From Escherichia coli (lineage in GTDB: Bacteria; Pseudomonadota; Gammaproteobacteria; Enterobacterales; Enterobacteriaceae): DNA of 64,000 nt. Shown here one piece after another: positions 32,003 to 60,601 of the stretch (the first letter of the stretch is position 1; each line of letters starts with the position of its first letter). A model generated the notes under the pieces. It did no database searches. It had not been told where the DNA came from and worked only from the letters and a program-made list of their open reading frames with translations. The stretch lies in assembly GCF_016026235.1 (NCBI RefSeq), contig NZ_CP065613.1. The stretch is one strand, 5' to 3'. The position numbers and the translations under genes are program-made.

Positions 32003-32114
32003 CCGAAGGTGGTTTCACGACACTGCTTATTGCTTTGATTTTATTCTTATCTTTCCCATGGTACCCGGAGCGGGACTTGAACCCGCACAGCGCGAACGCC
32101 GAGGGATTTTAAAT
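32003..32114. repeat. Left direct repeat of the island: terminator-like hairpin plus 56 nt copy of the tRNA-Leu 3' end (32059..32114), att-like
   Basis: About 95% identical to 60482..60601 (the 3' part of intact leuZ and its downstream terminator); tRNA identity is lost after ...GAGGGATTTTAAAT at 32114. Confidence 0.85.
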
Positions 32115-32379
32115 TCTACGTAGGATCAATGAGTTACATAGCAGTGCATTGTGAAACTTTGCTGACGTTGAATGGTCGTCTTTGCAACCACTGGCAGAAA
32201 ATGGATAGCCGTAGATTGCGTTGAGCACAGAAACAGCACAGGGTAATCGTCTACCTGGTCCTGTAAAGGAGGTTGTTGCCACACAAGCTAAAGCGCTTGA
32301 CCTGCCCCCAGTATTCGGTACAACTGTCAGTTAGTAATGGACTGACCCCGTTACTTTATTCGTACCCCTTATAATGGGG

Positions 32380-32576
32380 TGTTAGCCAGCCAGACCCGGC
32401 ATGATTACTGCCCCCAGTCGTCCATGATCCGGGGGGTGATGTCACCGGGTCTGGTGGGGCGCTGGTAACCGCTAATAGGGGTCAGGTCAGGCACTTTTGC
32501 CGGGACCGTCTGTAACGTGGATGCCGGTACCTGCTCCCCGTGGTTATCTGGTTAACCCATATACAAGGGAGACAGA
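32380..32576 (+). ncRNA. Candidate structured non-coding RNA upstream of the IS110-family recombinase (possible bridge RNA)
   Basis: GC-rich non-coding stretch with a long inverted repeat (CCAGACCCGG ... CCGGGTCTGG) immediately 5' of the recombinase; bridge RNAs are encoded in the 5' non-coding end in the IS110 subgroup (established for IS621). Inference only. Confidence 0.25.
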
Positions 32577-33773
32577 ATGACCGAATCCAGCGATTACGAA
32601 TCCGTCCAGGTCTTTATCGGCGTTGATGTCGGTAAAGATACGCATCACGCTGTTGCCATTAATCGTTCAGGTAAACGCCTGTTCGATAAAGCATTACCCA
32701 ACGACGAAAACAAACTCAGGTCGCTAATATCTGACCTGAAACAACATGGTCAGATACTGCTGGTTGTTGATCAGCCAGCTACCATCGGTGCGTTACCTGT
32801 CGCCGTTGCCCGCTCAGAAGGAGTCCTTGTCGGATACCTCCCTGGACTGGCCATGCGCCGCATAGCCGACTTACACGCCGGTGAAGCTAAAACTGATGCT
32901 CGTGACGCTGCCATCATTGCCGAAGCTGCCCGTACCCTGCCTCACGCGCTACGCACGCTGAAACTGGCTGACGAGCAAATCGCCGAACTCTCCATGCTCT
33001 GCGGCTTCGATGATGATCTTGCCGCACAGACAACGCAGGCCAGCAACCGTATCCGCGGCCTTCTGACCCAGATACATCCGGCACTGGAGCGCGTTCTCGG
33101 TCCGAGACTTGAGCACCCGGCGGTACTCGATCTTCTCCAGCGATATCCCTCACCAGAAAAACTCGCTTCGCTGGGTGAGAAGAAGCTGGCAGCCCAGCTC
33201 TGCAAACTTGCGCCTCGTCTGGGTAAACGCCTTGCAGCAGACATAGCTCAGGCACTGGCCGAACAAACCGTCGTCGTTCCCGGCACGAATGCCGCTGCCG
33301 TAGTACTGCCACGTCTGGCACTCCAGCTCATCACGCTGCGTAAGCAAAGAGACGAGGTGGCGCTTGAGGTAGAACAGCGAGTTCTTGCTCACCCTCTTTA
33401 CCCGGTCCTGACCAGTATGCCCGGAGTCGGTGTCAGGACCGCAGCCAGACTCCTCACCGAGGTCGCCTGCCGCGCCTTCGCCTCTGCCGCACATCTCGCT
33501 GCTTATGCTGGCCTTGCGCCGGTAACTCGGCGATCCGGCTCGTCAATACGCGGTGAGCATCCCTCGCGACGGGGTAATAAAGCTCTCAAACGGGCGTTGT
33601 TCCTGTCGGCCTTCGCCGCGCTCAGGGATCCGCTCTCCAGGGCTTACTACACCCGCAAAATGAGTCAGGGAAAACGACACAATCAGGCGCTTATCGCCCT
33701 GGCGAGACGACGCTGCGACGTTCTGTTCGCCATGATGCGCGACGGGACTTTTTATACCCCGCAGGGGTCATAA
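32577..33773 (+). CDS. IS110-family transposase/recombinase (398 aa)
   Basis: N-terminal RuvC-like DEDD motif VFIGVDVGKDTHHAVAIN and C-terminal Transposase_20-type block PGVGVRTAARLL; RBS AAGGGAGA upstream of the ATG. Confidence 0.85.
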   Translation: MTESSDYESVQVFIGVDVGKDTHHAVAINRSGKRLFDKALPNDENKLRSLISDLKQHGQILLVVDQPATIGALPVAVARSEGVLVGYLPGLAMRRIADLHAGEAKTDARDAAIIAEAARTLPHALRTLKLADEQIAELSMLCGFDDDLAAQTTQASNRIRGLLTQIHPALERVLGPRLEHPAVLDLLQRYPSPEKLASLGEKKLAAQLCKLAPRLGKRLAADIAQALAEQTVVVPGTNAAAVVLPRLALQLITLRKQRDEVALEVEQRVLAHPLYPVLTSMPGVGVRTAARLLTEVACRAFASAAHLAAYAGLAPVTRRSGSSIRGEHPSRRGNKALKRALFLSAFAALRDPLSRAYYTRKMSQGKRHNQALIALARRRCDVLFAMMRDGTFYTPQGS

Positions 33774-33869
33774 CATGCTTGACAACTTAATAGGGGCACC
33801 CCCCGGTAGACGATCCTGCCCTATAGTTGGACTGACCCCACCCCGGTAGACGATCCTGCCCTATAGTTT

Positions 33870-34053
33870 GAGTATAGGGGGAGCATATGGGCACACCACG
33901 GTCAATCAACCAATGACTGAGCAAATCAGGCTCAACATTACGGTTGTTAGGACGCGTGTGCCAATCGCCTAGATAACGATAGCCCAATTCCTCAATAAAA
34001 AACCTGACTACGCGCTGTTGAGTTGCGCGTTCACGTTGTCCGACAGTTGTCAC
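33870..34053 (-). pseudogene. 5' remnant of a gene truncated by the IS110-family element (resembles an N-terminus of a restriction-enzyme or helicase subunit)
   Basis: ORF 33787..34053 begins MTTVGQRERATQQRVVRFFIEELGYRYLGDWHTRPNNRNVEPDLL and then reads into the repeat-containing end of the IS; it lies 23 nt downstream of the helicase gene stop, so it was the next gene in that operon. Homology assignment is weak. Confidence 0.3.
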
Positions 34054-36396
34054 TGTTCTTATTACCTTTAACTAATTATGCCAATTCAGACTCAAACGCT
34101 GCATCATTCGCTTCAGCCTCTGCGCCATCAATTAATGCCAAGACTCGGTCAAGAAAGCGTTGCGCTTCGTATACATCTGTTGCTTGCCGCAGATAATGAG
34201 GTATTCGTTCAACAAACTCGGAACGTGATAAAGGCTGATGTTCCAGCAAAGCCTCAAGCATTGCGGGCCGCAACAAACGACGATCAGCATCAACATTAGG
34301 AAGCTCAACCTCAATGACATGTGTGGCAAAATACTTAAGTTGCTCCTTAAGCCCCAAATTGGGCATAAGAGAATCAATTGAGTCAGACGCCACTTCAGCG
34401 CTTGACTCAATCGTTTCGACATATTCACAGGAAGGTACAACAACGTCTGGAGCCAATGTTTTAAGCTCATGGAGTTTACGGATAATCGGAGATAGAACCT
34501 CATCAGGATTACTGAACCAATCAGTGGACCAAATGCGGCTAATTCTCCAACCCAAACGCTCCAGAACCTCTTGACGCAAACGGTCACGATCACGAGCAGA
34601 TTTAGCTGAGTGATAAGCCGCACCATCACACTCTATGCCCATTAAGTAACGGCCAGGACAACCTGGATCTTTCACAGCTAGATCAATAAAGAATCCTGCA
34701 ACCCCTACCTGAGGTTCACACTCAAACCCAGCGTGATTGAGTGCTTCCATTACAGCAACCTCAAAGTCACTATCTGGAGCCCTGCCGGTATGCGTTGTGA
34801 GGGAATCTAGTTTGCCACTTTCGGCAAACTGTAAAAAACCTTTCAACGAAATAACACCAAGTTTACTGGTTTCACTCGTCAATACATCTTCAGAACGCAT
34901 TGAACTAAACACATGCATCCGTTTTTTTGATCGAGTGAAAAGCACATTCAAGCGACGCCAGCCAACATCGGAATTGATAGGTCCAAAGCGTTGATAAACC
35001 TTTCCACCATGCTCAGAAGGTCCATAGGTAAAGGAAATAAAGATTACATCACGCTCATCCCCTTGAACGTTCTCAAGGTTTTTCACAAAAAGTGGCTCTT
35101 CCATGGCATATAAGCCATCGATTGCATCGTTAAATTCAGGGCGATTTCGGCGCAATTCATCGATAGCGCGCTCAATTTGATCGCGTTGCTTGGAACTCAT
35201 GGCCACTACCCCGAGTGACTCACCCGGCCGGTGTTGCGCATGATGAAGTACGGCCTCAGCAACTGCTTGGGCTTCTTCAATATTGTGTTGATTGGAGAAC
35301 CGACCTTTTGACACATAGGTAAATTTAATCCCATACTCTGGAGACTCAGCATTTGGGGAAGGGAATATCACCAAATCACTGTTATAAAAATGGCGGTTAG
35401 AGTATGCAATCAACTTTTCATGTCGTGAACGATAGTGCCAACGCAAACGTCTCATAGGAAACAGTGGCAAAGCAGCATCCAAAATGCTGTCAGTATCACT
35501 TAAAGCCGCGGCATCATCGTCATCTTCTCCGTCGGCACTTCGATCAAAGAAACTGGTTGGTGGTAGCTGTTTCGGGTCACCAACGACCACTAGTTGCTTG
35601 CCCCTCGCGATGACACCCAATGCATCCTCTGGCTTCACCTGAGACGCTTCGTCCATCACCACCAGATCAAATTCCATTCGTCCAGGTTCTAGGTAATGAG
35701 CTGCTGACATTGGCCCCATCATGAAACAAGGTTTAATTGCAACCAGCGCATTACATGCACGGTTAACCAATTGCCTAATTGGAATATGTCTGGTTTTTTT
35801 ACCCAACTCATTTTTGATCAAAGCTAGTTCTGTATATTCACTTTTCTTACCACCAGAATTCCCTTCTGGTATATTTCGGTAAGCAATTTTTGCTGCAATC
35901 CGCTGACGTTGTAATTCAATCAGTTTTTTGTCGTAATCTTTAAATGACTTCTGCAAAGCATTGCGCTGTGAGCCGGAAACTCTCATCAATTCAGGGTGGA
36001 TGTGAATAACCTCCCGCGCCAGCTGGTCATGAATTGCTAATGCTAAACCCAATTCAACTTTTTCAATCGGGAGCGAGCCCGCAAGTACAGCACTCCAGAT
36101 TCGCTGCAATCCATTTTCATGCATCTGCTCGTAACAACGAATAAAGTTAACCCACCCGTTCAACCAACGGGGTTGCTGTATTGCTCTTTCGTTGCGCTCG
36201 ATTAATGTATTAAGAGAACCATCAGTCGACTTGAGCCACTGACTCCGCTCTAACTTTGTTTCTAGCGCATATAACTCAGCATTTTTAATCTGTTCATTCC
36301 ATTTCGAAACTATTTCCCCACCATCACGACATAGTAAATCGGGTGATGCTGCCAACTTACTGATTTAGTGTATGATGGTGTTTTTGAGGTGCTCCA

Positions 36397-36672
36397 GTGG
36401 CTTCTGTTTCTATCAGCTGTCCCTCCTGTTCAGCTACTGACGGGGTGGTGCGTAACGGCAAAAGCACCGCCGGACATCAGCGCTATCTCTGCTCTCACTG
36501 CCGTAAAACATGGCAACTGCAGTTCACTTACACCGCTTCTCAACCCGGTACGCACCAGAAAATCATTGATATGGCCATGAATGGCGTTGGATGCCGGGCA
36601 ACTGCCCGCATTATGGGCGTTGGCCTCAACACGATTTTACGTCACTTAAAAAACTCAGGCCGCAGTCGGTAA
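36397..36672 (+). CDS. insA: IS1 protein InsA
   Basis: [43 protein letters not shown]... matches InsA. Confidence 0.9.
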
Positions 36673-37094
36673 CCTCGCGCATACAGCCGGGCAGTGACGT
36701 CATCGTCTGCGCGGAAATGGACGAACAGTGGGGCTATGTCGGGGCTAAATCGCGCCAGCGCTGGCTGTTTTACGCGTATGACAGTCTCCGGAAGACGGTT
36801 GTTGCGCACGTATTCGGTGAACGCACTATGGCGACGCTGGGGCGTCTTATGAGCCTGCTGTCACCCTTTGACGTGGTGATATGGATGACGGATGGCTGGC
36901 CGCTGTATGAATCCCGCCTGAAGGGAAAGCTGCACGTAATCAGCAAGCGATATACGCAGCGAATTGAGCGGCATAACCTGAATCTGAGGCAGCACCTGGC
37001 ACGGCTGGGACGGAAGTCGCTGTCGTTCTCAAAATCGGTGGAGCTGCATGACAAAGTCATCGGGCATTATCTGAACATAAAACACTATCAATAA
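36591..37094 (+). CDS. insB: IS1 transposase InsB reading frame (expressed as InsAB by -1 frameshift)
   Basis: ORF matches InsB (...[21 protein letters not shown]...); overlaps insA in the -1 frame. Confidence 0.85.
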
Positions 37095-40000
37095 GTTGGA
37101 GTCATTACCAGTAAATCGTAATCACTACCACTAGCCAAATGTCTGATCTGGGTAGCCAAGGATACGCAATTTATCTTATCAACCAGTTGCTCGGCAAAAT
37201 TCAGCGTGTCGTTAATAGTGTCTAACGTCAGTTGATTATTTTTATACGCACCGCAAGCCAATGGGGTTAATTGTAAAAACGCCCCTAACTGTAACGAGTC
37301 ATTTTCAAGGGATATCTGAAGATCGTTTATGTTTTGCAAAATCTCGGAGGAATGAGTCATCTGCTCTAATGATATATCTGGATTGATAAACCATCCCTGC
37401 AAGGCAATGAGAGTATTCCGCACCTGTCGGTAAGATTGCATCAATACACCTTGCTCACCTAACCAAGATGCATGTTCTTCCAACAAGCTAGAAATACGCG
37501 GTAATAACTTAGCCTCGTGCTCGACCCGTTTAACCAAAGTCATTAATCTTGAGCTAATCTGCGATTTCTCGATTAAATGCACACCTTTGATAATCTCACC
37601 ATCTAGGTTAATTAATCCAGAGCCTATCGCAACTCGCTTTCCAAAACCTATCCCGTAACAAGCTCGGACCTTCTTGTACCAATCACGCAATAACATGAGT
37701 TGTTCACAGTCGGTGTCCAACCCTCGGAATGCATTACCAAGTTGATTACCAAAGTCACTTTGTTCAAACCGTTGTAACAGCTCCGAATACTTGAGCAAAT
37801 CAGCTGAGCAGCGTTTTAACTCAGCAAACTTAGTGTCAGGCTTACGAGATTGCGCCATGAGCAGTGCCTTGGCACTACGCCAATCACTCTTAAACCATGC
37901 AAATAATCCCCCTTGCTGGATAACAGCAACGGCATGCGCGAGCATCTCTTGGGAAGGCAACTGGTCCAATTGATACAAAGTAGATAGACCATCTCTTAAA
38001 GGACGCAATGTTTCGATTTGACACATTAAGTCGCGCAATACTGCATCGATATCATCATCATCAAAAAGAGGATCTCGAACTCTAATAAGCTCAGTCGGTA
38101 AAGCACCCAGAATCGACAACAACTCAGAGCAGAATAGCAATCCAGCTTGCGAATCATCGATATACGAAGCAATACCATCTGGCAAAGCATTTTTGAAATC
38201 GTTTAATTGCGCATAAATAGATGATAACTCATCATGAATTGATTGGATGGATTCAAGCCACCTGACCAAATCACGTAAAGTGAAATCCTCTGCTGCACCA
38301 TATTTTTCCAGCTCTTCACGAGGAAAGTCACACGATTGTCCTTGTTCTAAAAGTCGTAGCTTTTGAGGCTCGATAACCTGGCTCAAGGCCACATAATGAC
38401 CTTGTAGCAACTCGAACCTATCTAAATAGTGACGCACCCGTGCAATGGCATCGAGTGAATCTAGCTCACTAAGTGCTGGGAAATGCTCTGAACCACACAA
38501 CACTGGAAGATTCGACTGATCTTCTACCAATTGCTCAATATATTGAAGCGTATTAAGGCTTTCGCCTTCTAACGCCCACTTATCTACATATTCTTGATAG
38601 CTATGTTGAAAGTCGATAATTGATGTCTGCCAAGTTTGTAGCAAATCGACTATACGAGCGCTGTCAAACAATTGAATTTGTGTGTTATTCACACCGCTCC
38701 AAGGGTGCTCATATATTTCTGCATTAGCCCCCACCTGCTCACGAACCTCTTTGTAGATGCGGCTAAACTCTACTATTTGGTCACGCAGCCGTAATTGGGT
38801 CACTTTATCCAACTGCTTCCCGGAAAGGTTTTCGATATGAAGTGCTGTTGCATCAATATCTAATTTGTGACGATAACGTGTTGCACCACTCAAAATCTGA
38901 TGGATCGTTTTGCCTGTTTGCGCCCATTGGTTATTGATCAATGCGGCATATTCATTGAGCTGCTGCTTAAGATCTTCATAACGCAAAATCTGAGCATCAA
39001 TCTCTTCCATAGTAGGCATGGTCGCCTGACTCACCAAGCGAGCATTAATATCATCCAGCACCTTGCGCTTATGAGTTTTATGACTGTGCAACTCTAAGCA
39101 AAATTGACCTAGCCCCGCACGATCCAAGCGACGTTTGACGACCTCCAGTGCAGCCATCTTCTCTGCCACAAACAGGACTTTCTTACCGTTGAGCAGAGCT
39201 GCTGCAATCAAGTTGGTGATCGTTTGTGATTTGCCACTACCAGGAGGGCCCTCAATGACTAAGTTTTGACCACGGATAGCATCGATCAACGCACTGTGCT
39301 GCGAGCTATCCGCATCATCGATTAGTGGAACCTTGTCATGAATATCAGGGTAACTATCGATGCAGTACTCATGCTGACCGAAGCCACCAGGTAAGCCGGA
39401 ATTCTCTTGACCACAGCTCTGACTGGTGAAAAAGCGACGAATTACTTCATGAGACAATATATTGCGCTTGTCACAAGGCCAGCGGGCAGGATCGAGGTCA
39501 AGATACATCATCATCTTGCCAAAATTGAGCAAGCTAAGTGCACCATAACGTTTCACAGACCATTTAGGTTTGTGCTGCTCTACAACCTTCTTCACCGAAG
39601 CAAAATAAGACTCTGGAGTTTCCTCTTCATTGAACAAAGGAAGAGCGAGGCCAAAGTCAGCCTGAAGTTTTTCCTTCAAAGAGAGATTGGGCAAAATATC
39701 TTCACCCGTGTAATAAAGTTGAAACTTGTAAAGACCATCCTTCGGATCTAATTTTCCTCGTTCACATCTCACCGGAATTGTAAATAACGGTGCATAACGT
39801 GCCTTTTCAGAGGAATCGCTTTCATACCACTCAAGGAACCCTAACGCCAAATACAAGATGTTGGCGCCACTCTCCTCCAAAGCAGTTTGAGCCTTACCAT
39901 AGATGGCGCGCAAACAAGCTTCCAGTTCATTTGGATAAAGCAGAGCCTGTATCCGATTATCGTCATGAGAGGAATTGGAAGAAGATATACTAATCTCATT

Positions 40001-40774
40001 CCCAGCCTTTGCCTGTCGTTCAAAATCCTCAAGCCCTTCATAGCCTGCTAAGCAGCACGCCTCCTTCAACGCTGACAAAGCTATACCTTGATTAACGTAT
40101 TCAGAACGAATCCCTGTTAATTTTCCATTCTGGCCTTGGGCATATTGCAAGATAAACTGATGGGCTTTTTCCAGCAACTCTCTATCTGAATCAGAAACAA
40201 CCGTTTTATGGCTATCTGGTAAATCAAAATCTGTACGGATTCCTAAGACGTGCGCCCAATCCTTAGCGCTAGGATGAGCTCTTAACTGTATATCTTTACC
40301 ATCTGGCCCAACTTTGAGATAGCCATGCTCTAACAGCTGCGCTCTAGTTGGATCGGGCACAGGAGCAAATTCCATCGGGATTTCCGAGCAAAGGGTTTCA
40401 TAAAGCTGTTCTGGTAATTCATCAACAATACGTAGTGAAGACCCTTTTTGAGTGATAGGGAAATTCAAAAGTCGATTTCGAGACGTAAGGTCCAATAACT
40501 TCTTACGCATAGCCTCGAGGGAAGTCAGAATAAAATCTGAGCCTCCTTGATTGAGTTCCTCTGCTGTAGAGGTATCTACAGTCGACATAATGTTCTCCAT
40601 TTCTTAGGGTCCACAAGTAAAACGTTTTATGCTGATGCATCACAAAAAGACCGCAGTAAACTGCTGCAAAGAAGAGGAGATTTTTAGTCTCCCCTTCTTT
40701 ATCAATCAGATCATACAATCAACTTAACGCCCATTAGTTGATAGCAGCCAAATTTCATAAACAGATTCAATCCG

Positions 40775-48958: not shown

Positions 48959-49007
48959 TAATCCTTTTCTTTCTGGCGCTACTCGCTACTGGTCACATGA
49001 AGATTCA

Positions 49008-49691: not shown

Positions 49692-50914
49692 TCGGCAACC
49701 GCCTCATCGACCTTAACACGACGTTTGCCAGTCAATAGCTGTTGCATCAGGGCTTTTTTCTCATCTCTCAGGCAGGCGAGTTTTTTCTCCAGCGTGGAGA
49801 TTTCGGTGTCAGCAGCGGACAGCACGGCGGCGATTTTTTGTTGCTCTTTAATAAATGGGCAAGAAAAGCTTAAAGTTTCAAAATCTTTCTTGGAAAGTTC
49901 TAAAAATGTTGAGCCAGATGATTTTTTGATCATCTCATTTGTGTTCATTTGCAACAAATAATAAATAAATTCGATATTAAACCCTTCATTCGGAATGATG
50001 TTTTTAAAACCTTGATTGGTACAAATTTCCGATGTCGAAATTGCTAAAGCACCAATGGTAGCTCTTGTACATACCATCAAACTACCTTTTGGCAAAAGAA
50101 CAGCTGAGCTATTTAGTAATCCCGCAGGAGTAATTTTTCTACTAGTATTGCTAACGAACCTACCCGTTAATGCAGTAACATCAGTTGGGGTAAGCCATAG
50201 AATATCGCCTTCCCAATACATGGCCATGTTTGTATCAGGTGTTCCACCGGATACAACTTTGCCCATTTGTATTAGTTTAGTAATTTTCCACTCCCCACTA
50301 AACCTCACCCCATTCTCATCCAACAACCGTTTATTCCCGGTAAGCAATTGCTGCATCAGGGCTTTTTTCTGCTGTTGACTGTTGGCGAGAAGGCTTTCCG
50401 TCACCGAAATTGCCTTATCCCAGGCGGTCAGAATTTGAGATATTTTATCTTGTTCACAAATAGCAGGAGTTTTTATGTTTAACGCTCTAATATCAGAAAG
50501 GTTAATTCTAGAAAAGGTAGAACCACCTGCACTTTTTGCTATCTGTCGCTGGACTAAATCTGATTGTAATGTGTAGTAAATAAACCGCCAATCTGCATGG
50601 ATTGCTTTAATTAAGACAGTGTCTTGCCCTAATACAAATGGCTTTTTGGAATCCACATAGCTAACAACACCGACAGACTGGTTACGACTCATAACCAAAT
50701 CACCTTGTTCAACAACACAGTGATCCATCAGAGAGCGATATTCTTCTTCTGTAACTCTTTTTACAGGTGAAATCAGATCTAAGGCTCCCCATTTTATCGT
50801 CCCCGGTGAGACAAGTGGTATTCCCGATTTAACGTACTCAGGAGTCCTGTGTTTGCAATCGATTATCGACGCAACCGATGAGAGTTTCTGAGATGACCAC
50901 CCCTTAGGAATCAT
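49688..50914 (-). CDS. hsdS: Type I restriction-modification specificity subunit HsdS (408 aa)
   Basis: Two variable target-recognition domains separated and followed by the conserved repeat [11 protein letters not shown]; start overlaps the hsdM stop. Confidence 0.88.
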
Positions 50915-52427
50915 AACCCAACTCCTTCAGATACCCCGCCATCTCCGTTTCCAGCTTCGCCAGTTCCGCCTTCAGTTGCTCGCGTTCGGCGCGTACGGCC
51001 AGCAAATCAATCTCGTCTTCTTCTTCAAAGGTATCGACATAGCGCGGAATATTGAGGTTGTAATCGTTGTCCTGAATTTCCTTCAGGCTGGCAAGATAGG
51101 CGTATTTCTCGACGTTATCGCCATCACGGTAGGTCTTGACGATTTTCTTAATGTTTTCTTCGCTAAGCTGGTTCTGGTTTTTACCTGCCTTGAATTCACG
51201 GCTGGCATCGATAAACAGCACCTTGTCATCAACTTTCTGCTTTTTGAAAATCAGAATCGCAGCCGGAATCCCCGTACCGTAGAACAGTTTTTCCGGCAGA
51301 CCAATTACCGCATCCAGCAAATTTTCGTCGATCAGTTTCTGGCGAATTTTACCTTCGCTGGAGCCACGGAAAAGCACACCGTGTGGCACAACTACGCCCA
51401 TACGGCCAGTTCCCGGTTTCAGGGTTTCGATCATATGCGAGATAAAAGCGTAATCTCCTTTAGTCTTCGGCGGTACACCGCGACGAAAACGGCCAAACTT
51501 ATCGTTCTCGGCCTCGTCATGGCCCCACTTATCGAGGCTGAACGGTGGGTTAGCGGTCACGATATCAAACAGCATCAGGTCGCCATTTTTATCGAGCAGC
51601 TTCGGGTTGCGAATGGTATCGCCCCACTCGATTTTATGGTTGTCTTCCCCGTGCAGGAACATATTCATTTTCGCCAGCGACCACGTAGAACCGATCGCTT
51701 CCTGACCGAACAATGCATAGTTACGACTATCATGCCCGGAGACAATTTTACGCCCACACTTCATCAATAATGAACCGGAACCACAGGCTGGATCGCAGAT
51801 GGTATCACCCGGTTGCGGATCGAGCAGTTCTGCAATCAGGTCCGAAACTTCCGGCGGGGTATAGAACTCCCCGGCTTTCTGCCCACCGCTGGCGGCAAAG
51901 TTTTTGATCAGGTATTCGTAAGCATTGCCGATAACGTCCAGCGTACCGACACGACTCGGCTTCAGGTTGAGATCTTCACCGGCGAAGTCTTCCAGTAGCT
52001 GACGAAGGATGGTGTTTTTCTGTTTTTCTTCGCCAAGACGATCGGTGTTAAACGAAATATCCTGGAACACGCTTTTCCCGGCATCTTTCAGTTTGGTTCC
52101 GTTGGCTTCTTCGATTGCATGCAGAGCCTGATCGATACGCTCACCGTTACCCGGCTCATGGCGGCGTTCGTACAGCGCATAAAAGCTGGCACTTTTTGGC
52201 AGTACAAAACGCTCGTTGGCCATCATCGCTTCAATCAGTTCCGGCACATCGCCATACTGTTCTTTGTATTCGTCATAGTGATCCTGCCAGACATCTGAAA
52301 TGTACTTGAGGAACAGCATGGTAAGGATAAAGTCTTTATAGGTATCAGCACTGATGGTGCCACGGAACGTATCACACGCGGCCCACAGGGCTTTGTTGAT
52401 CGTGTCCTGACTGATTTTGTCGTTCAT
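50904..52427 (-). CDS. hsdM: Type I restriction-modification N6-adenine DNA methyltransferase subunit HsdM (507 aa)
   Basis: AdoMet-binding and catalytic motifs (DPACGSGSLL, NPPF). Confidence 0.9.
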   Translation of the reverse strand: MNDKISQDTINKALWAACDTFRGTISADTYKDFILTMLFLKYISDVWQDHYDEYKEQYGDVPELIEAMMANERFVLPKSASFYALYERRHEPGNGERIDQALHAIEEANGTKLKDAGKSVFQDISFNTDRLGEEKQKNTILRQLLEDFAGEDLNLKPSRVGTLDVIGNAYEYLIKNFAASGGQKAGEFYTPPEVSDLIAELLDPQPGDTICDPACGSGSLLMKCGRKIVSGHDSRNYALFGQEAIGSTWSLAKMNMFLHGEDNHKIEWGDTIRNPKLLDKNGDLMLFDIVTANPPFSLDKWGHDEAENDKFGRFRRGVPPKTKGDYAFISHMIETLKPGTGRMGVVVPHGVLFRGSSEGKIRQKLIDENLLDAVIGLPEKLFYGTGIPAAILIFKKQKVDDKVLFIDASREFKAGKNQNQLSEENIKKIVKTYRDGDNVEKYAYLASLKEIQDNDYNLNIPRYVDTFEEEDEIDLLAVRAEREQLKAELAKLETEMAGYLKELGYDS

Positions 52428-52730: not shown

Positions 52731-53966
52731 TTGATGCCCTTTGATAGTAATGATGACCGTCAATGTGATTCCCCTGCTGACTGGAGGTCTCCGGATAGTA
52801 TGAGTATTACCAACTGCGTTATCGGCCCACTTTACGATGAGCAAATAAAAAAAACACTTATGTATGCTGACCATAAATTCAAGCGGCTAATGAATACACG
52901 AATGTCGTTACTCGAACATTTATCACCCCACTATGACTTATCTTCCATGTTCAGCTATGAGTTGGAGGGAAGAGTTTTTCGGATTAAATTGATCAAGCCT
53001 GAGATTAAATTATCTCGCCAGCAGTTGATCTTCTCCTCACTCTTTTTAGAGCAAGATTTTCTAAAAGAATATAAAAAACACATCTCAAATACTCTACAAA
53101 AAACAATCAAACAGTGCATTAAAAAATACAAACAAAAAATCAAAATCGAGCCTTCTATTTTAGATTACATATCAGCGTCACCCCGCAATACGTCGAGTTA
53201 TGTATTACATGAGATAGTTTCTCAATGTGAACATTGCGATGAAATTCGCAATATTAAAAATGATATATTGCTTGATGAACTAACGTTGAATGGCCGGATC
53301 ACTAACATTTCAAAATACATTAAAAACAGTCAAGATAAAATCGTCGAACATATAGAGTTCTGCACTCATAAACTTGTCAATATAAGTCGTAAGAATCGTC
53401 ACATTTTCAACAGCACCACAATCTCTGGCAGAAAACCCAACATCACTGGTGTTTTACTTTGCCTTTCAGAATTGATAAGCAACCTGCATATTTACCCAAC
53501 TGAAATTAATAATATAAGCAATGCCATAATATTAAGCATTGTATACTCTGTACTTCAACATCTTCAATCCGGAAGAAAAACAGAAAAAACAAAAACCTCT
53601 CCAGCACTGGATTTCATCCCCACCATCATCGCACCTCATGTTTTCTACCTGGCGAAACGCGAAAAATCCTCTCAATATAAATACATTGAAAAAGAATATC
53701 TTCTCGGCCAGTTACTTATATTTTTGATGTATAAAACAGTTTACTACTCGATTCATAACATCAGGGTAAGCCGTAAGCATTTCTATAACGATATAAAACC
53801 AAAATTAATGATACTAAAAAAAGAAAGCTTATTAAGCACCAATTTCATGAAAAATCGAAGAGAGATTAGTGGTGAAGTCTTTGGTGATGTTGGTAGTATT
53901 GAGGCTGATTTTCGAGAAATCAGCACATTGATTCATCGGCGAAAGGCTCTGTTTATTTCCTTTTAA
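52731..53966 (+). CDS. AT-rich hypothetical protein (411 aa), no recognisable motif
   Basis: Long ORF in a strongly AT-rich segment; Lys/Ile/Asn-rich product; start codon uncertain (the first ~25 codons are GC-richer than the rest). Confidence 0.55.
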   Translation: MMPFDSNDDRQCDSPADWRSPDSMSITNCVIGPLYDEQIKKTLMYADHKFKRLMNTRMSLLEHLSPHYDLSSMFSYELEGRVFRIKLIKPEIKLSRQQLIFSSLFLEQDFLKEYKKHISNTLQKTIKQCIKKYKQKIKIEPSILDYISASPRNTSSYVLHEIVSQCEHCDEIRNIKNDILLDELTLNGRITNISKYIKNSQDKIVEHIEFCTHKLVNISRKNRHIFNSTTISGRKPNITGVLLCLSELISNLHIYPTEINNISNAIILSIVYSVLQHLQSGRKTEKTKTSPALDFIPTIIAPHVFYLAKREKSSQYKYIEKEYLLGQLLIFLMYKTVYYSIHNIRVSRKHFYNDIKPKLMILKKESLLSTNFMKNRREISGEVFGDVGSIEADFREISTLIHRRKALFISF

Positions 53967-54368: not shown

Positions 54369-55499
54369 ATGTTCGAGAAAATGAAAAACAATGTAACCCG
54401 TATGCCGGGGAATTTAACAAAACTTAATCAATACCAAAAAGACATTGATCACCTGTCTAAACTATTTTCTGAACAGCAATTACTGGAACTAATGACGACT
54501 ACCGAATCCGATCAAATATTGCAAATGAAGCCTGCTGTAGATATTCTTCATGTACTATCTCCATCAGCATCTACTGCTAAGCATATCAATTTTTTTCAGC
54601 ACGTCCCAGTGCTCGAACAATGGTTAAAAAAGGAGTGCACTGCCTTTAATTTACTGGCAGTACATTTCTATTCACAGCAATCCCGTAAAAATGTAATTCC
54701 GAAAGAAATCTGTATGCTACTGGATGCATTTATTGAAACTGAACTTTCATCTGCGGTTAATGGTAATAATAATGCCGAACTCCTTTCTTGTTTTCAAAAC
54801 ACGCTGGATAAAATGTGCAATACACTAACATTTATAGACCACACAGTTACGGAACAATCAGGTCAAGTAGCAATGCTTGATTTCAGCGCAAAAATGCATG
54901 AATATACTGTTGAAATCAGGACCTTTTTGAAGTCTGAATACTGGCTAAACAAACTACCTAAGGATATTAACATTCCAGCCATTGACCTATCCTGGCTTGT
55001 GTTTTGTTACTTTTGCTCTGAATATCTTTTTGTATTTATTCAAACAACGCTCAATACAATGAAGGCAGGAAAAATCATTCGTGATAACTACCTTTATCAT
55101 CCTAAAATGATTGCATTGATCATTTTATCTATGCTGCCTTATGAAGTCATTCATAACGATGGATCACTGAATAAGTTTAAAACGCCTTTAACCAGCCCTG
55201 ATGAGTTCATAATCAAATCTATTTGCATTAAAGGTAAGCAAAACACTACAGGGCATAAAAAAGATATAGAACAATTGCTTCGTAAGACATATATCTATAT
55301 TGCATTACTCTTAAACCCTGAGTGGGCACCATCTTCCAAGGAGTTGATTTCCTTTTTATCAGGAAAGTCCTCAGTGATAAGTGGTTCACTCAACTTCCAG
55401 TCAACCTCCAGTGGTCTGGGTGTTCAAACAAACAATATAACTCTTCTTAAGAATGAGGTTTACTTCGAAAAAATAGCGAACAAGATCATGAAACTGTAG
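54369..55499 (+). CDS. AT-rich hypothetical protein (376 aa), no recognisable motif
   Basis: Long ORF in an AT-rich segment; RBS-like GAGGA upstream of the ATG. Confidence 0.55.
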   Translation: MFEKMKNNVTRMPGNLTKLNQYQKDIDHLSKLFSEQQLLELMTTTESDQILQMKPAVDILHVLSPSASTAKHINFFQHVPVLEQWLKKECTAFNLLAVHFYSQQSRKNVIPKEICMLLDAFIETELSSAVNGNNNAELLSCFQNTLDKMCNTLTFIDHTVTEQSGQVAMLDFSAKMHEYTVEIRTFLKSEYWLNKLPKDINIPAIDLSWLVFCYFCSEYLFVFIQTTLNTMKAGKIIRDNYLYHPKMIALIILSMLPYEVIHNDGSLNKFKTPLTSPDEFIIKSICIKGKQNTTGHKKDIEQLLRKTYIYIALLLNPEWAPSSKELISFLSGKSSVISGSLNFQSTSSGLGVQTNNITLLKNEVYFEKIANKIMKL

Positions 55500-55642: not shown

Positions 55643-56779
55643 ATGCCTATTCTGGATCTGCGTTTCAGCAACAAATCAATTCACCAACTTCCACATCCCC
55701 TCACGGGTTGTCAGGAATACCGTGATATTCACTGCCAAAACCTGCGTGCTCTGGTGTATCCCAATCGGATCACGCTGGCCTTTCGTGCCACTATAAACAA
55801 TCAGCGTATATATGAAACCCTGGGTCAGTTCCCTCAGCTCTGCGTTGAGGATGCCCGTCAGCATGTGATGAAACTGCTTGCTGATAAAAATCGTCTTGCG
55901 GTTCAGTCCCGTCGATTCACTGTGGAACAGGCCATCAATGACCTGTGGCTACCGGATTTGCAGTTGTATAAAAAGAGTCCTCAGTCAGAGTTGTCAAAAC
56001 TCAACCTCTACGTTCGCCCGTTCTGGGGCAAGCGGCAACTTCGCGACATCACGGCAGGAGAACTAGAACAATATGCTGCTGGCTTACGGGAAAAATTACG
56101 TCCGTCAACAGTAAACCGTATCCTCGCAATATTGTCCAAAATATGCTCTCTGGCAGTACGTGCTGGATGGATCACACATTCCCCGATGTCACATGTCCGC
56201 TATCTGAAAGAAAATAACATTCGCTATCGCACACTGTCAGCGACAGAAATCCCGCGCTTTATTGACGCGGCAACAGCGCTGCAAACACCGGCAGCTGATT
56301 CTATATTGCTTGCTCTTTATACGGGGATGCGTATTGGTGAGGTATGTACCCTGAAATGGGAGTACTGGCACCCGGATATGCATCAACTCATACTGCCTGA
56401 TACAAAGTCCGGACACCCTTTCACCTGCCCACTTGCACCTCCAGCCATTGCAGTTGTCCAGTGCCAGCAGGACCTGATGCTCAGCAAAACTTACATTTTT
56501 CCACAACTAACCGACAATGCCCGCCCTCTGGCATATCCGCGTGCAACCTTTGCCCGTATTTGCCGGGATGCCGACATTGATAACCTGCGGATGCATGACC
56601 TGCGCCGTACCTTTGCCACCCGGGTACTACAGGCGACCGGGGATATTGCAATCGCTTCCCATCTGCTAAATCACCATTCACTCACGGCGACCCGTCGCTA
56701 CGCTTTTCACAATGCAGCGACATCACACGCAGTGGTTTCTCAGGTCATAGAAAGTTATGACACAAAAATGAACCTATGA
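55643..56779 (+). CDS. int: Tyrosine recombinase / phage-type integrase (378 aa)
   Basis: C-terminal catalytic motifs (MRIGEVCTLKW, HDLRRTFATRVL, LNHHSLTATRRYAFH) and an N-terminal arm-type region (FSNKSIHQLP). Confidence 0.85.
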   Translation: MPILDLRFSNKSIHQLPHPLTGCQEYRDIHCQNLRALVYPNRITLAFRATINNQRIYETLGQFPQLCVEDARQHVMKLLADKNRLAVQSRRFTVEQAINDLWLPDLQLYKKSPQSELSKLNLYVRPFWGKRQLRDITAGELEQYAAGLREKLRPSTVNRILAILSKICSLAVRAGWITHSPMSHVRYLKENNIRYRTLSATEIPRFIDAATALQTPAADSILLALYTGMRIGEVCTLKWEYWHPDMHQLILPDTKSGHPFTCPLAPPAIAVVQCQQDLMLSKTYIFPQLTDNARPLAYPRATFARICRDADIDNLRMHDLRRTFATRVLQATGDIAIASHLLNHHSLTATRRYAFHNAATSHAVVSQVIESYDTKMNL

Positions 56780-56921: not shown

Positions 56922-57050
56922 ATGTATTTAACCATTAAGCAGTTCGCAGAAAGATTTAATCTTTCTGCATCCACGGTTGCGTCAGATATATCGCGCAACC
57001 CCGGAAAACTCCCGCCCTTCATCAGAATTGGGCGGGCTATACGATTCTCT
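56922..57050 (+). pseudogene. AlpA-family helix-turn-helix regulator/excisionase-like gene truncated by IS1
   Basis: MYLTIKQFAERFNLSASTVASDISRNPGKLPPFIRIGRAIRF resembles AlpA-type HTH proteins; the reading frame runs into the IS1 terminal repeat at 57051. Confidence 0.6.
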
Positions 57051-57818
57051 GGTAATGACTCCAACTTACTGATAGTGTTTTATGTTCAGATAATGCCCGA
57101 TGACCTTGTCATGCAGCTCCACCGATTTTGAGAACGACAGTGACTTCCGTCCCAGCCTTGCCAGATGTTGTCTCAGATTCAGATTATGTCGCTCAATGCG
57201 CTGAGTGTAACGCTTGCTGATAACGTGCAGCTTTCCCTTCAGGCGTGATTCATACAGCGGCCAGCCATCCGTCATCCATACCACGACCTCAAAGGCCGAC
57301 AGCAGGCTCAGAAGACGCTCCAGTGTGGCCAGAGTGCGTTCACCGAAGACGTGCGCCACAACCGTCCTCCGTATCCTGTCATACGCGTAAAACAGCCAGC
57401 GCTGACGTGATTTAGCACCGACGTAGCCCCACTGTTCGTCCATTTCAGCGCAGACAATCACATCACTGCCCGGTTGTATGCGCGAGGTTACCGACTGCGG
57501 CCTGAGTTTTTTAAGTGACGTAAAACCGTGTTGAGGCCAACGCCCATAATGCGTGCACTGGCGCGACATCCGACGCCATTCATGGCCATATCAATGATTT
57601 TCTGGTGCGTACCGGGCTGAGAGGCGGTGTAAGTGAACTGTAGTTGCCATGTTTTACGGCAATGAGAGCAGAGATAGCGCTGATGTCCGGCAGTGCTTTT
57701 GCCGTTACGCACCACGCCTTCAGTAGCGGAGCAGGAAGGACATCTGATGGAAATGGAAGCCACGCAAGCACCTTAAAATCACCATCATACACTAAATCAG
57801 TAAGTTGGCAGCATTACC
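57051..57818 (-). mobile_element. IS1 (768 bp), divergent isoform, no target site duplication
   Basis: Terminal repeats GGTAATGACTCCAACTTA (57051..) and GGTAATGCTGCCAACTTACTG (reverse complement at 57818); insA 57488..57763 and insB 57066..57569 differ at several residues from the IS1 copy at 36342. Flanking 9-mers differ (CGATTCTCT vs CATCTTCAA). Confidence 0.9.
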
Positions 57819-57935
57819 CATCTTCAAATGGGAGTACCAGCTCTGTTTTCAACAGACTCATTACTGACTCCGGAAGAAGGAGCGACGGCAGGTCTTGCCA
57901 GTTCGAGACAAATTTCATTGAATAATCCTCATAAA

Positions 57936-58013: not shown

Positions 58014-58256
58014 TTAAATTCTTTCATAATACCCACAGTCCATACAGATAAGCACTGGCGCATTATTTCTTTCACACTGTTCAAGGAATCCAAATAGTTT
58101 TTTAATAGCCTTAATAATTTCTTTCAGTATTTCAGGTAAAAACTCCAGGCTAATATACCCAGAGCGTTTATTATCGGTTATCGATGGCAGTTTTCCTGCT
58201 GAACTTATCAATGTATTACAACTGCCACACTGTGGGCATTTTAAATGCATCCTCAT
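58014..58256 (-). CDS. Small zinc-ribbon protein (80 aa), AT-rich
   Basis: Two CxxC pairs (CPQCGSC ... CMDCGYY). Confidence 0.5.
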   Translation of the reverse strand: MRMHLKCPQCGSCNTLISSAGKLPSITDNKRSGYISLEFLPEILKEIIKAIKKLFGFLEQCERNNAPVLICMDCGYYERI

Positions 58257-58286: not shown

Positions 58287-59516
58287 TCACATCTGCTTCG
58301 TAGCCGCAGTATTCAGAAGCAGGTCAGTCACTCCCTGCCCTGTCTGACGCATACGTTCCGGTGTTAATTTCGCGTAACGTTCTGTACTCTGAATACTGGC
58401 ATGCGCCAGTTGGGCTTTAACGTCATACAGGCTGAATTGACCACTCGAAACCAGTAAAGAGGCAACAGAATGACGTGTGGTGTGAAAACAGACTTCATTC
58501 TTGTCTATACCGCACTGTGCCAGTATTTTTTCATATGCCCATCGGGGTTCCGATATCGGTTTTCCATTATCCTTAATGGCGAACAGATACGGATTACTGC
58601 CAACTCGTGGGATAGCATCAATAATCGATAATGCGGCATCGCTTAGATATACCGTCCGACTGCGACCATTTTTTGTATAAGGAATGAACAGAGTACGATT
58701 GGCCCGGTCGATATGTTCATGCCTGACATTAAGCATTTCTGATTTGCGTGTACCGGTTAACAACAACATGGCTATCAATCCCCCGGCAGCTTTGTTGGGA
58801 TATTGGGTAGCAGCGTCAAGAATGCGCCTGATCTCATCAGCATCAAAAAAGCGCGTCCGCTGATTATTCTCTTTCAGTAAAGGGATCTTATCGGCTTCAT
58901 TCTTTTCCAGCACATCCTGTCGCAACGCATAACGCCCCATCGTTTTCAGAATAGCAAGGGCTCTGTTACAGGTAGACGGCGCATATTGCTGCCCGTGAAT
59001 ACGCCCCTCCAGCATGTCAAACAGCACCTGTTGTATCTCTCTGGCCCTGAGATCGCAGTAACGTATCTTTCCCAGACGAGGTTCAATGTATTGCGTGAAA
59101 CGCTGAACATCCTTATCCCAGGACTTTTTATGGCGTTTGATGAACGGAACATAGGTCTGGTGAAAAAACTCACTAAGTGTTGGCATCGCACGATAATTAT
59201 CGCGTTCTGCTTTAGGGTCATTTCCCAGTGCAATCGCCTCCTTATGACGGCGAGCTATCTGGCGAGCTGTCCCCACATCAATTTCAGGGAATCTGCCAAT
59301 ACTGATACTTTTTTTGGTACCGTGGAATGTGTAGCGCAGGAGGAAACGTTTGTTACCCGTTCGACCTGAGAGACATTTGAGGCCAATAACTTCGGTATCA
59401 GATACCTCAAGCTCTGTAGATCTGGTATCTGTGTTTGCCGGAAGGGCTTTGATGGATGAATTGGTGAATCGGAAGGATTTTTGCATATTTATCCTCATGT
59501 ATCTGATTGATATCAT
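58287..59516 (-). CDS. int: Tyrosine recombinase / P4-type integrase (about 400 aa; start may be a downstream Met)
   Basis: Arm-type N-terminus (FRFTNSSIKALP), catalytic motifs (LLLTGTRKSEMLNVRHEHI, HTTRHSVASLL, STERYAKL); located close to the tRNA-Leu end of the island. Confidence 0.85.
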   Translation of the reverse strand: MISIRYMRINMQKSFRFTNSSIKALPANTDTRSTELEVSDTEVIGLKCLSGRTGNKRFLLRYTFHGTKKSISIGRFPEIDVGTARQIARRHKEAIALGNDPKAERDNYRAMPTLSEFFHQTYVPFIKRHKKSWDKDVQRFTQYIEPRLGKIRYCDLRAREIQQVLFDMLEGRIHGQQYAPSTCNRALAILKTMGRYALRQDVLEKNEADKIPLLKENNQRTRFFDADEIRRILDAATQYPNKAAGGLIAMLLLTGTRKSEMLNVRHEHIDRANRTLFIPYTKNGRSRTVYLSDAALSIIDAIPRVGSNPYLFAIKDNGKPISEPRWAYEKILAQCGIDKNEVCFHTTRHSVASLLVSSGQFSLYDVKAQLAHASIQSTERYAKLTPERMRQTGQGVTDLLLNTAATKQM

Positions 59517-59566
59517 GGAGATAATATATATCTGAAGGTGTTTTTATTACGGGGCAGGATTGAAGA

Positions 59567-60307
59567 ATGGAAAAGCTATTAGACGCGTACAAACGGATAT
59601 TACAGGAAGTTGACGCCCAGTCATTTAACCTGAATGAGGATAAATACTCAGGCGTCTTTTTACCCGTGCCCTTTGAAGAATACTGGCACTCACCGGTAAA
59701 AATCATACTGGTTGGACGTGAAACCGCTGGCTGGAATACTCTGAATGGTAAGAACACGATATCACGGGTGCTGGGACTTATACCTGACGTCACCATCGGG
59801 CAGGTGGTTGGAGAGGCTGTAGATCGTTACAGGAATCATCTTCCGGTACAAAATGATGGCACCACGAACCTCAAATCACGTAGCCGCTTCACGCAGTATC
59901 ATTTCCGGCTGGCCCGGGAGCTTAATATTCCTCCTCAGGCTATCGTGTATGCCAATCTACTGGCGTGGGATTACGACGGACTGACCCCTCTCAATCGCCC
60001 TCAAAATGAAGTGCAGGAAGTTATATTAGCCTCGCTGAAGCTGCTGGCGGTACAAATTAAACACCTTGAGCCTGATTTCATCATCTTTGCATCCGGAGCC
60101 CGGAGAACAGACTACATCATAAAACAGGTGCTTACTGAGCTGGGCGGCTATGAGACTTCTGCAGTCATTCCGGGGAAGCTATGGGAGTTCAAAACAGGTA
60201 ATGCAATCTGTTTCAGAATTGCCCATCCACGGGCTATGCGCGGACACCAGAAGTACAGAGATGAGGTGATTGCACGAATTAAGCAACTTTGTACTCAGGG
60301 TGGCTAG
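59567..60307 (+). CDS. Hypothetical protein (246 aa) between integrase and leuZ
   Basis: Long ORF with RBS-like sequence; no confident family assignment from sequence alone. Confidence 0.55.
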   Translation: MEKLLDAYKRILQEVDAQSFNLNEDKYSGVFLPVPFEEYWHSPVKIILVGRETAGWNTLNGKNTISRVLGLIPDVTIGQVVGEAVDRYRNHLPVQNDGTTNLKSRSRFTQYHFRLARELNIPPQAIVYANLLAWDYDGLTPLNRPQNEVQEVILASLKLLAVQIKHLEPDFIIFASGARRTDYIIKQVLTELGGYETSAVIPGKLWEFKTGNAICFRIAHPRAMRGHQKYRDEVIARIKQLCTQGG

Positions 60308-60481
60308 AGCATTACAGCTTGCTCAGCGGCCCCCTTCCCGGAAGCGTACCGGAAAACAGGCAAAGCGGCCTGGTTCTCTATGCTGGAAGCGACACGTTCG
60401 ATTCGGCATTGCCAGGCTGAAGATTGCAGCTCATCGCACCCCGTGAGCACAGGATATGCACAGGACATGAATTTCAGGCAC

Positions 60482-60601
60482 AAAAAAACCACCCGGAGGT
60501 GGTTTCACGACACTGCTTATTGCTTTGATTATTCTTGTCTTTCCCATGGTACCCGGAGCGGGACTTGAACCCGCACAGCGCGAACGCCGAGGGATTTTAA
60601 A
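60482..60601. repeat. Right direct repeat of the island (leuZ 3' part plus downstream terminator hairpin)
   Basis: About 95% identical to 32003..32114. Confidence 0.85.

Follow-up and report, generated by a model that had tools for sequence, protein, structure and literature searches.

The present analysis concerns a stretch of 64,000 nucleotides of Escherichia coli contig NZ_CP065613.1 (assembly GCF_016026235.1), hereafter called the window, and in particular an insert of 28,488 bp (32115-60602) which separates yecA from the tRNA-Leu gene leuZ and is very probably a pipolin that has lost its polymerase gene. Pipolins, a kind of integrative element, are defined by their primer-independent family-B DNA polymerase (piPolB). 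In K-12, yecA and leuZ are neighbours according to the RefSeq annotation, as a first-pass annotation of the window, made from the sequence alone, had stated, and its estimate of about 28.4 kb of inserted DNA agrees with the length measured here. Three annotated relatives of the island, from FDAARGOS_943 (L001), 50EVAW (L002) and 99COLEC (L003), served for comparison, together with a set of 5426 complete E. coli genomes.

The island at leuZ and its junctions

The insertion site, the two ends of the island and the genes of its right part are the following; after leuZ come cysT and then glyW (ARAGORN).

31198-31863, minus strand: yecA (NCBIfam)
31982-32114, minus strand: yecA-side direct repeat, the 'attL' of pipolins, with the displaced native leuZ 3' 56 nt (32059-32114) and the native 3'ETS-leuZ and terminator (31982-32058)
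55643-56779, plus strand: intact IntP2-type tyrosine recombinase (Pfam Phage_integrase, 6.5e-21), 98.7% identical in amino acids to the 99COLEC recombinase which precedes the excisionase and piPolB
56922-57059, plus strand: 5' remnant of the excisionase/helix-turn-helix (HTH) gene, 46 of 66 codons, cut by IS1 (tblastn with the 99COLEC protein, which at full length matches TIGR01764 'excise')
57051-57818, minus strand: IS1 at a deletion junction, with no target-site duplication, standing in place of 8.6 kb (32818-41425 of the 99COLEC locus)
57820-57918, minus strand: 5' remnant of a core hypothetical gene (hyp372), 33 of 123 codons (tblastn, 100% identity)
58014-58256, minus strand: small conserved open reading frame (ORF) of 80 amino acids downstream of the integrase gene (phrog_32727, 1e-57)
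58287-59516, minus strand: intact IntSXT-type integrase (Pfam Arm-DNA-bind_3 and Phage_integrase), 100% identical to that of 99COLEC over 399 residues
59567-60307, plus strand: pipolin orphan gene of 246 amino acids between the integrase and the repeat, 95% identical in amino acids to 99COLEC (phrog_29550, 7e-177)
60472-60602, minus strand: leuZ-side direct repeat, the 'attR' of pipolins, with the 3'ETS-leuZ allele and terminator attributed to the element (60472-60546) and the element leuZ 3' 56 nt (60547-60602)
60547-60633, minus strand: leuZ, tRNA-Leu UAA, intact (ARAGORN; Rfam tRNA model, 57.7 bits)
61001-61549: pgsA (NCBIfam)

When the flanks of the window were joined in silico across one copy of the repeat and searched in the genome set, the joined sequence was found to be contiguous in 3782 of the 5426 genomes (the rows listed being single pieces with 100% coverage and 98.9-99.8% identity), and consequently the repeats are true junctions of the island and the insert is accessory. 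This empty site bears out the initial description of a horizontally acquired leuZ island bounded by attachment (att)-type repeats which include the terminator. In about 30% of complete E. coli genomes the site has a form other than the simple contiguous (empty) one, and some of these genomes may be rearranged rather than occupied. The site of E. coli pipolins is the tRNA-Leu gene between pgsA and yecA (PMC11551731); the window has, at this same position, att-like direct repeats of which one overlaps the tRNA gene.

Relationship to pipolins and loss of the core

At least 80% of the cargo of the island was found at the same locus in 72 genomes (megablast against the E. coli genomes). Between their recombinase genes, the three annotated relatives carry an excisionase-like HTH gene, a small hypothetical gene, a 2.6 kb gene named 'DNA polymerase type-B family', an HTH regulator, DUF726 and DUF2787 genes and two hypothetical genes. 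The polymerase of 50EVAW has D59, E61, D368, K613, H614, K623 and R625, including the KH-X8-KTRG motif, the very residues that were mutated when piPolB was characterised biochemically (Cell Reports paper), and this agreement with a characterised enzyme makes the relatives bona fide pipolins. The identification went by the residue numbering of that paper; the relatives' polymerase had no significant match in NCBIfam, Pfam or PDB sequence searches (Pfam DNA_pol_B_2, E-value 0.009). The text of PMC7385651 does not contain the strain names of the matching genomes.

The window is collinear with these three loci except for insertion sequences (IS) and an 8.6 kb gap, and the collinearity extends on both sides of the missing core at 98-99.9% nucleotide identity (about 99% to 99COLEC). 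In common with intact piPolB-encoding pipolins, the island has its two ends, its pair of integrases, the orphan core genes and the entire cargo module. The nearest relative, FDAARGOS_943, is 99.9% identical and keeps a piPolB gene of 2601 bp. Compared with the window, 99COLEC shows variation in the target-recognition domains of hsdS and an extra gene with a cold-shock domain.

By contrast with its relatives, no piPolB is present in the whole window, where a tblastn search with the 50EVAW protein returned as best hit a chance match (E-value 6.9), and no tblastn match was obtained there for the DUF2787, HTH regulator and DUF726 proteins of 99COLEC or for two others of its genes, hyp534 among them. 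With the missing 8.6 kb went piPolB and the 3' end of the excisionase gene, together with the HTH regulator, DUF726, DUF2787, two small hypothetical genes and further hypothetical ones; the DUF2787 and WYL/HTH core which surrounds IntSXT in pipolins is absent from the window, its genes lying in the deleted segment. The IS1 which stands at this junction has no target-site duplication, while a second IS1 in the island, within the hhe gene, has one of 9 bp; the pattern at the junction is compatible with an adjacent deletion mediated by IS1 as well as with recombination between two of its copies. The exact junction occurs in none of the 5426 genomes, so the deletion can neither be dated nor demonstrated to be common to relatives, and its absence from them, together with the presence of piPolB in the 99.9%-identical FDAARGOS_943, points to a recent and lineage-specific loss.

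Such decay recurs, as in strain M160133, and on a broader scale at least 80% of the module formed by IntSXT and the orphan gene was detected in 355 of the complete E. coli genomes and any piPolB DNA in 296, which leaves at least 59 genomes with the module and no match to piPolB, a lower bound obtained from the counts and not from a cross-tabulation.

Anatomy and alleles of the direct repeat

The direct repeat was delimited by repeat search and pairwise alignment to 31982-32114 (133 bp) and 60472-60602 (131 bp); 128 of the 133 aligned columns are identical, the rest being accounted for by one 2-bp indel and three substitutions. Within the window, a 38-nt piece taken from the repeat has exactly two occurrences, where zero are expected by chance. 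The repeat runs from the anticodon loop of leuZ to the 3' end of the tRNA, through the 67-nt 3'ETS-leuZ and the terminator, to a few further bases, and thus comprises the 3' 56 nt of leuZ and 75-77 bp past it. The first-pass annotation had correctly seen a direct repeat holding these 56 nt and the terminator, but its figures of about 112 bp overall and about 55 bp beyond the tRNA fall short. The additional sequence has an identity of its own: in the K-12 RefSeq annotation, by which 3'ETS-leuZ was placed here, the 67 nt directly after leuZ are a small regulatory RNA (sRNA) of this name (b4759), described as an RNase E-processed sponge for the sRNAs RyhB and RybB with an ARN-rich Hfq-binding linker and a terminator hairpin (bioRxiv 10.1101/2021.04.25.441314).

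The two copies carry different alleles. All four yecA-side copies examined (window, FDAARGOS_943, 50EVAW and 99COLEC) match throughout the native allele of the empty sites of K-12 and UPEC132, and the leuZ-side copy of the window has variants found in neither of these two empty-site sequences. The leuZ-side copies of the window, of 99COLEC and of a further pipolin locus (L011) have in common a deletion of 2 bp and altered bases in the terminator loop and among the first 10 nt of the spacer, and the repeats of the window align with those of the two latter, intact, pipolins. The element allele has C at position 10 of the 3'ETS, an A-run shortened by 2 nt and a UCCG loop. Native alleles on the yecA side and element variants on the leuZ side indicate that the copy on the functional tRNA gene came in with the element. 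The native copy has accordingly been displaced 28 kb from its promoter, as a crossover at the inner edge of the repeat would lead one to expect, and leuZ would be a hybrid with 31 native nucleotides at the 5' end and an element-supplied remainder from the anticodon loop onward, a stretch which is the same in both repeat copies.

The inner edge of the repeat lies in the anticodon loop, at ATTTAAAATCCC, both in the pipolin and in three phage attachment sites (attP). In the record of phage 520873 it is offset by 1 nt; this record holds host flank past the repeat and was not counted as an independent attP. The block from anticodon loop to terminator stands beside the integrase genes of the independently isolated phages mEp390 (where it is annotated as attP) and Fostie and of Pectobacterium phage ZF40, and a P2-like prophage of O157 carries it too. 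Elements whose crossover lies inside a tRNA gene and whose attP replaces the part beyond can have identity blocks as long as about 250 bp (PMC10111431, citing Williams 2002), and such extended blocks can reach into the terminator (PMC10111431). A repeat of about 131-133 bp is therefore long for a simple reason and within the known range; with the same block present in unrelated leuZ phages, the exceptional length attributed to it in the first pass does not hold.

In the remnant island of M160133 (L013), the leuZ-side repeat (6780-6883 of that locus) follows the native allele through the terminator and is of pipolin type just past it, a mosaic suggestive of exchange between the two 131-bp repeats, by gene conversion or homologous recombination.

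An acquisition of a different kind, by which the island would have spread through RecA-dependent homologous recombination between flanking homologies and the repeat would be no att site but a by-product, is very unlikely. An identity block of 131 bp is long enough for such a route, to which the M160133 mosaic also lends itself, and pipolin excision was undetectable in sequencing data (PMC7385651). However, transfer through flanking homology would create no duplication, and independent phage genomes hold the same block as attP beside integrase genes; moreover, the inner edge at one and the same anticodon-loop position (within 1 nt) in unrelated elements is a signature of site-specific recombination.

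The two integrases

Both tyrosine integrases listed in the first pass (55643-56779 and 58287-59516) have Phage_integrase domains, and the IS1 noted between them is present. They are about 27% identical to each other in amino acids and lie in opposite orientations; the arm-binding domain is clear in the IntSXT-type enzyme and its match is marginal in the IntP2-type one. The family labels are those of the literature (PMC11551731), not of a phylogeny made here. As in pipolins, the IntSXT-type recombinase is next to the integration site, and by analogy with the family, for which IntSXT has been proposed as the primary integrase (PMC11551731), it is presumed to be the enzyme of integration and excision.

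The core of pipolins has been described as piPolB, an IntSXT-type recombinase near the tRNA gene, an IntP2-type recombinase followed by an excisionase, and DUF2787 (PMC7385651, PMC11551731). Both integrases are found in the same order and orientation in the intact pipolins of 50EVAW and 99COLEC, which share the cargo of the window, and the same core order with both integrases recurs in a pipolin with different cargo (L014), namely a dCTP deaminase, a restriction endonuclease and another type I system. The comparison of integrases by cargo, which had been proposed as a check, finds both together in all three elements regardless of cargo. The 246-amino-acid orphan gene beside IntSXT is annotated in 99COLEC and L014 and in two further loci (L011 and L012).

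It was on the strength of the two integrases and the IS1 that the first-pass annotation favoured tandem or composite islands, that is, two islands, each with its own integrase, which had inserted successively at leuZ and fused, the IS1 marking the seam. The low identity and opposite orientations of the enzymes and the mosaic GC content of the island (0.574 in the IS110 element, 0.54 in the DUF262 pair and 0.356 in the orphan genes, as the first pass had perceived) would suit such a history, and prophages do accrete in tandem at this site, with three att repeats in some genomes (PMC7385651). Nevertheless, the window has only two att copies: neither the repeat search nor a search with the 38-nt piece allowing three mismatches revealed a third. 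Furthermore, the same pair occurs in the same order in single intact pipolins with different cargo, IntSXT and IntP2 are core genes of one element and no tandem pipolins have been found in Enterobacterales (PMC11551731), and the IS1 marks an internal deletion, standing where 8.6 kb of contiguous pipolin core used to be and not where two ends meet. A composite origin is already largely refuted by these observations and must be rated highly improbable. The chance that the island is a degraded prophage or phage satellite is next to negligible: occupied pgsA-yecA sites are mostly prophages (PMC11551731), P2-like ones occur at leuZ (L006) and several ORFs of the island match PHROG families, but NCBIfam, PADLOC and PHROG searches of the window found no structural, lysis or phage-replication genes, and the nucleotide-level collinearity is with piPolB elements. 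On this evidence the tandem array, the degraded prophage and acquisition by homologous recombination alone were all rejected.

Origin of the island

The insert is best explained as a single pipolin-derived island which lost piPolB in an IS1-associated deletion and whose long repeats consist of a replacement tRNA 3' half, an sRNA and a terminator, a reading to which we assign a probability of roughly 0.88. From what is known of the family, the IntSXT-type integrase would have recombined attP with the host site attB in or near the anticodon loop, and all host sequence past the crossover would have been cut off by 28 kb from the glyW-cysT-leuZ promoter. The attP would have brought in the remainder of the transcription unit, from the 3' half of the tRNA through the sponge of RyhB and RybB to the terminator, and the repeat would owe its length of 131-133 bp to this replacement. 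With the later deletion, autonomous replication would have been lost, and probably efficient excision as well; by analogy with intact pipolins, an island without piPolB and excisionase is now probably a defence island with little or no mobility. The content still at work, again as expected from the families concerned, would be a type I restriction-modification (R-M) system with PDC-S12 and an M48 peptidase, and a pair of DUF262 genes, the Hhe system being inactive.

Several points weigh against this account. The hallmark piPolB is absent, so that strictly the island is a derivative of a pipolin and not a pipolin. The crossover point is deduced only from the start of the repeat and three element-specific variants. 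Set against 50EVAW, the window lacks DNA to the left and to the right of a similarly placed IS1, and the loss possibly took more than one step. The mechanism of excision and integration of E. coli pipolins still needs confirmation in vivo (PMC9710591). Finally, the sample behind any selection on the element-borne 3'ETS, treated below, is small: five distinct leuZ-side copies from pipolins or prophages, and three phage attP sequences.

The pipolin family, the loss of piPolB and the identity of the extra repeat sequence with the annotated sRNA 3'ETS-leuZ had not been recognised in the first pass.

The 3'ETS-leuZ allele carried in the repeat

Only the K-12 allele is known to be processed by RNase E, to bind Hfq and to act as a sponge (bioRxiv 10.1101/2021.04.25.441314). 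Both 3'ETS copies of the window fold into a 9-bp terminator hairpin followed by a U-tract. The segment predicted to pair with RyhB and RybB, AAGCAGUGUCGUG, is unchanged in 11 of 11 aligned E. coli copies, and the terminator stem is likewise invariant across them; the changes sit in the linker, in the loop and past the U-tract. With RyhB, the predicted duplex energy is -32.5 kcal/mol for the native allele and -32.1 kcal/mol for the pipolin allele of the window, and with RybB -26.7 and -27.6 kcal/mol respectively, so that the two alleles agree to within 1 kcal/mol; these values, computed with duplexfold against the K-12 sRNAs, ignore intramolecular structure and are comparative only, on a small sample. 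Element alleles vary in the ARN/Hfq-binding linker and in the terminator loop, and in some phages also in the flank of the pairing site. Rfam, searched in E-value mode over 28-64 kb, reported three tRNAs only, having no 3'ETS-leuZ family, and a consensus terminator scan did not flag the leuZ terminator, although folding did show the hairpin.

The attP sites of mEp390 (L007, 1501-1621) and Fostie (L008, 1501-1632) show a compensatory double change in the T-stem, from GCGGG/CCCGC to GTGGG/CCCAC. In the 3'ETS allele of these two phages the flank of the pairing site is altered, and predicted pairing with RyhB is -22.8 against -32.5 kcal/mol, that with RybB being about unchanged.

At the other end of the island (31982-34076), the cargo gene hhe is oriented such that its transcripts head for the native leuZ 3' half, 3'ETS and terminator left stranded there. 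In those relatives that lack the IS110 or IS3 insertion, hhe transcription may stop at this orphaned host terminator, and read-through into the stranded copy could still yield some native 3'ETS RNA.

That the allele beside leuZ is derived from the element is well supported by the comparison of alleles, and any phenotypic consequence of element 3'ETS alleles is speculation. A more general proposition appears unlikely: that every element inserted in leuZ swaps the host 3'ETS-leuZ sponge for an allele of its own and strands the native copy in a promoter-distal position, with a possible shift in sponge dosage or affinity. If it were true, element alleles could change the noise threshold in the sRNA regulation of iron and envelope stress, whether as a by-product or as a benefit of carriage. 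The presence of 3'ETS-leuZ inside the repeat was not found noted in the pipolin or 3'ETS-leuZ papers searched, and the open-access literature searched held nothing relevant which links leuZ or 3'ETS with prophage attP, an absence which is not proof of novelty.

Defence cargo and insertion sequences

Between the left repeat and the IntP2 gene, the island contains the following features.

32350-33827, plus strand: IS110-family insertion inside the left end (transposase ORF 32577-33773; NCBIfam NF033542, 239 bits)
34076-40600, minus strand: hhe anti-phage helicase gene, split into ORFs 34076-36355 and 37088-40600 (two halves by the NCBIfam/PADLOC Hhe models)
36342-37109: IS1 in hhe, with the 9-bp target duplication AGTAAATCG
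40775-44264, minus strand: two overlapping DUF262-family genes of 680 and 484 amino acids (PADLOC HEC-06 and Orf5/SspE, 1e-33 and 3e-30)
44512-44891: old IS1 fragment between the DUF262 pair and the type I R-M operon, with an IS3-type 'integrase core' pseudogene just left of it
44919-52427, minus strand: type I R-M operon of hsdM, hsdS, a YecA-family gene, hsdR and an M48 metallopeptidase gene
44919-45674, minus strand: M48 metallopeptidase (RefSeq name in the three relatives)
45671-48958, minus strand: hsdR (TIGR00348, 463 bits, above cut-off)
49008-49691, minus strand: YecA-family gene (PADLOC PDC-S12, 1e-97)
49688-50914, minus strand: hsdS (lower score, as expected for variable target-recognition domains)
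50904-52427, minus strand: hsdM (TIGR00497, 284 bits, above cut-off)
52731-53966 and 54369-55499, plus strand: two AT-rich orphan genes of 411 and 376 amino acids (35.6% GC) between hsdM and IntP2, conserved in related pipolins

The cargo is mainly of restriction and defence type according to NCBIfam and PADLOC, as had been proposed from the ORFs, and it corresponds to published pipolin cargo, which is rich in defence genes, type I R-M, PDC-S12, hhe and HEC-06 being named (PMC7385651, PMC11551731). The operon unites hsdR, hsdM and hsdS, with gene lengths equal to those of FDAARGOS_943. The two hhe ORFs cover positions 1-1061 and 1060-1797 of the Hhe model, in place of the single intact protein of about 1900 amino acids with DUF4011 and helicase domains which defines the system; an intact hhe of 5736 bp is found in FDAARGOS_943, 50EVAW and 99COLEC, and the gene of the window has been inactivated by a simple IS1 insertion. 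The DUF262 pair, for which the RefSeq name in all three relatives is 'DUF262 domain-containing protein', is a candidate HEC-06-like or SspE-like restriction module.

The two AT-rich orphan genes are annotated as hypothetical in 50EVAW and 99COLEC, and their proteins fall in no family of NCBIfam, PADLOC, PHROGs or Pfam. In a large protein search, homologues of the 411-amino-acid protein were only hypothetical proteins of Escherichia, Salmonella, Klebsiella and Edwardsiella, and its sole domain hint is a weak match to AbiJ_NTD4 (E-value 0.04). The two genes could be an uncharacterised defence pair.

The PDC-S12 gene, which encodes a SEC-C-motif protein within an R-M operon, overlaps the start of hsdS by 4 bp at its 3' end, and its product is 58% identical to the chromosomal YecA. 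Chromosomal yecA happens to flank the integration site, and the cargo gene may once have been captured from a yecA beside an att site.

As regards the insertion sequences, the IS1 fragment at 44512-44891 is kept, as annotated pseudogenes, in all three related islands examined and looks like an old scar at a boundary of exchanged cargo modules. The IS110 insertion is not found at the corresponding point in FDAARGOS_943 and 50EVAW, and in the alignment with 99COLEC it is one of the interruptions of collinearity. The motif GGACTGACCCC occurs at both of its junctions (32338-32349 and the 33801-33871 region), and its right end holds a 31-bp near-copy (33801-33831) of the target flank that follows (33841-33871); this resemblance of donor and target is much longer than a simple target duplication, and it may reflect the sequence-guided targeting known for IS110 elements or flank DNA kept from an earlier insertion. 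FDAARGOS_943 has IS1 in araF and ftnB, IS600 copies after IntP2 and IS2 in the IntSXT region, all of which are missing from the window (for the araF/ftnB region, 26125-27438 of the window against 8001-10849 of the FDAARGOS_943 locus), and by this comparison the two lineages appear to have gained IS elements independently.

Implications

In annotation, the island should be labelled a pipolin remnant. Tools keyed to piPolB, such as ExplorePipolin, discard genomes without this gene and miss such islands; with at least 59 piPolB-less genomes, the conversion of pipolins into fixed defence islands through IS-driven decay may happen more often than the literature suggests. Having kept its att repeats and integrases and lost polymerase and excisionase, the element of the window is a natural test case for the need for piPolB in maintenance and mobility. 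Work on sRNAs in strains other than K-12 may involve element-borne alleles of 3'ETS-leuZ. The element family, the site, the repeats, both integrases and the cargo are all already published, and these findings do not overturn current understanding; the only mildly new point is that the element supplies the sRNA sponge allele beside leuZ.

Comparison with known systems

The closest known systems are the E. coli pipolins (Redrejo-Rodriguez 2017, Flament-Simon 2020, Mateo-Caceres & Redrejo-Rodriguez 2024), which the island resembles in site, att-like repeats, both recombinases, orphan core genes and cargo, and to whose intact members it is 98-99.9% identical in nucleotides. It differs from them in the lack of piPolB, most of the excisionase, the HTH regulator, DUF726 and DUF2787, and in an Hhe system inactivated by IS1. 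'PiPolB-less, pipolin-like islands' have been mentioned (PMC11551731), and the remnant of M160133, which lost piPolB and both integrases to an IS3 element, is similar in the IS-mediated loss of the core, with defence cargo left fixed beside leuZ; unlike that remnant, which has no integrases, the element of the window keeps both integrases and both att repeats.

With the leuZ phages (mEp390, Fostie, ZF40 and P2-like prophages) the island shares the block which runs from the anticodon loop via a 3'ETS-like spacer to the terminator hairpin, whereas their integrases and genomes are unrelated and their 3'ETS alleles more diverged (76-88% identity), the allele of mEp390 and Fostie having weaker predicted RyhB pairing. 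Phage HP1 reportedly shows a long identity with a tRNA operon. In the extended att identity blocks of tRNA-integrating elements (PMC10111431), as in the present repeat, the crossover is intragenic and attP replaces everything downstream, past the gene too; the difference is that the sequence replaced here is a characterised regulatory RNA, 3'ETS-leuZ.

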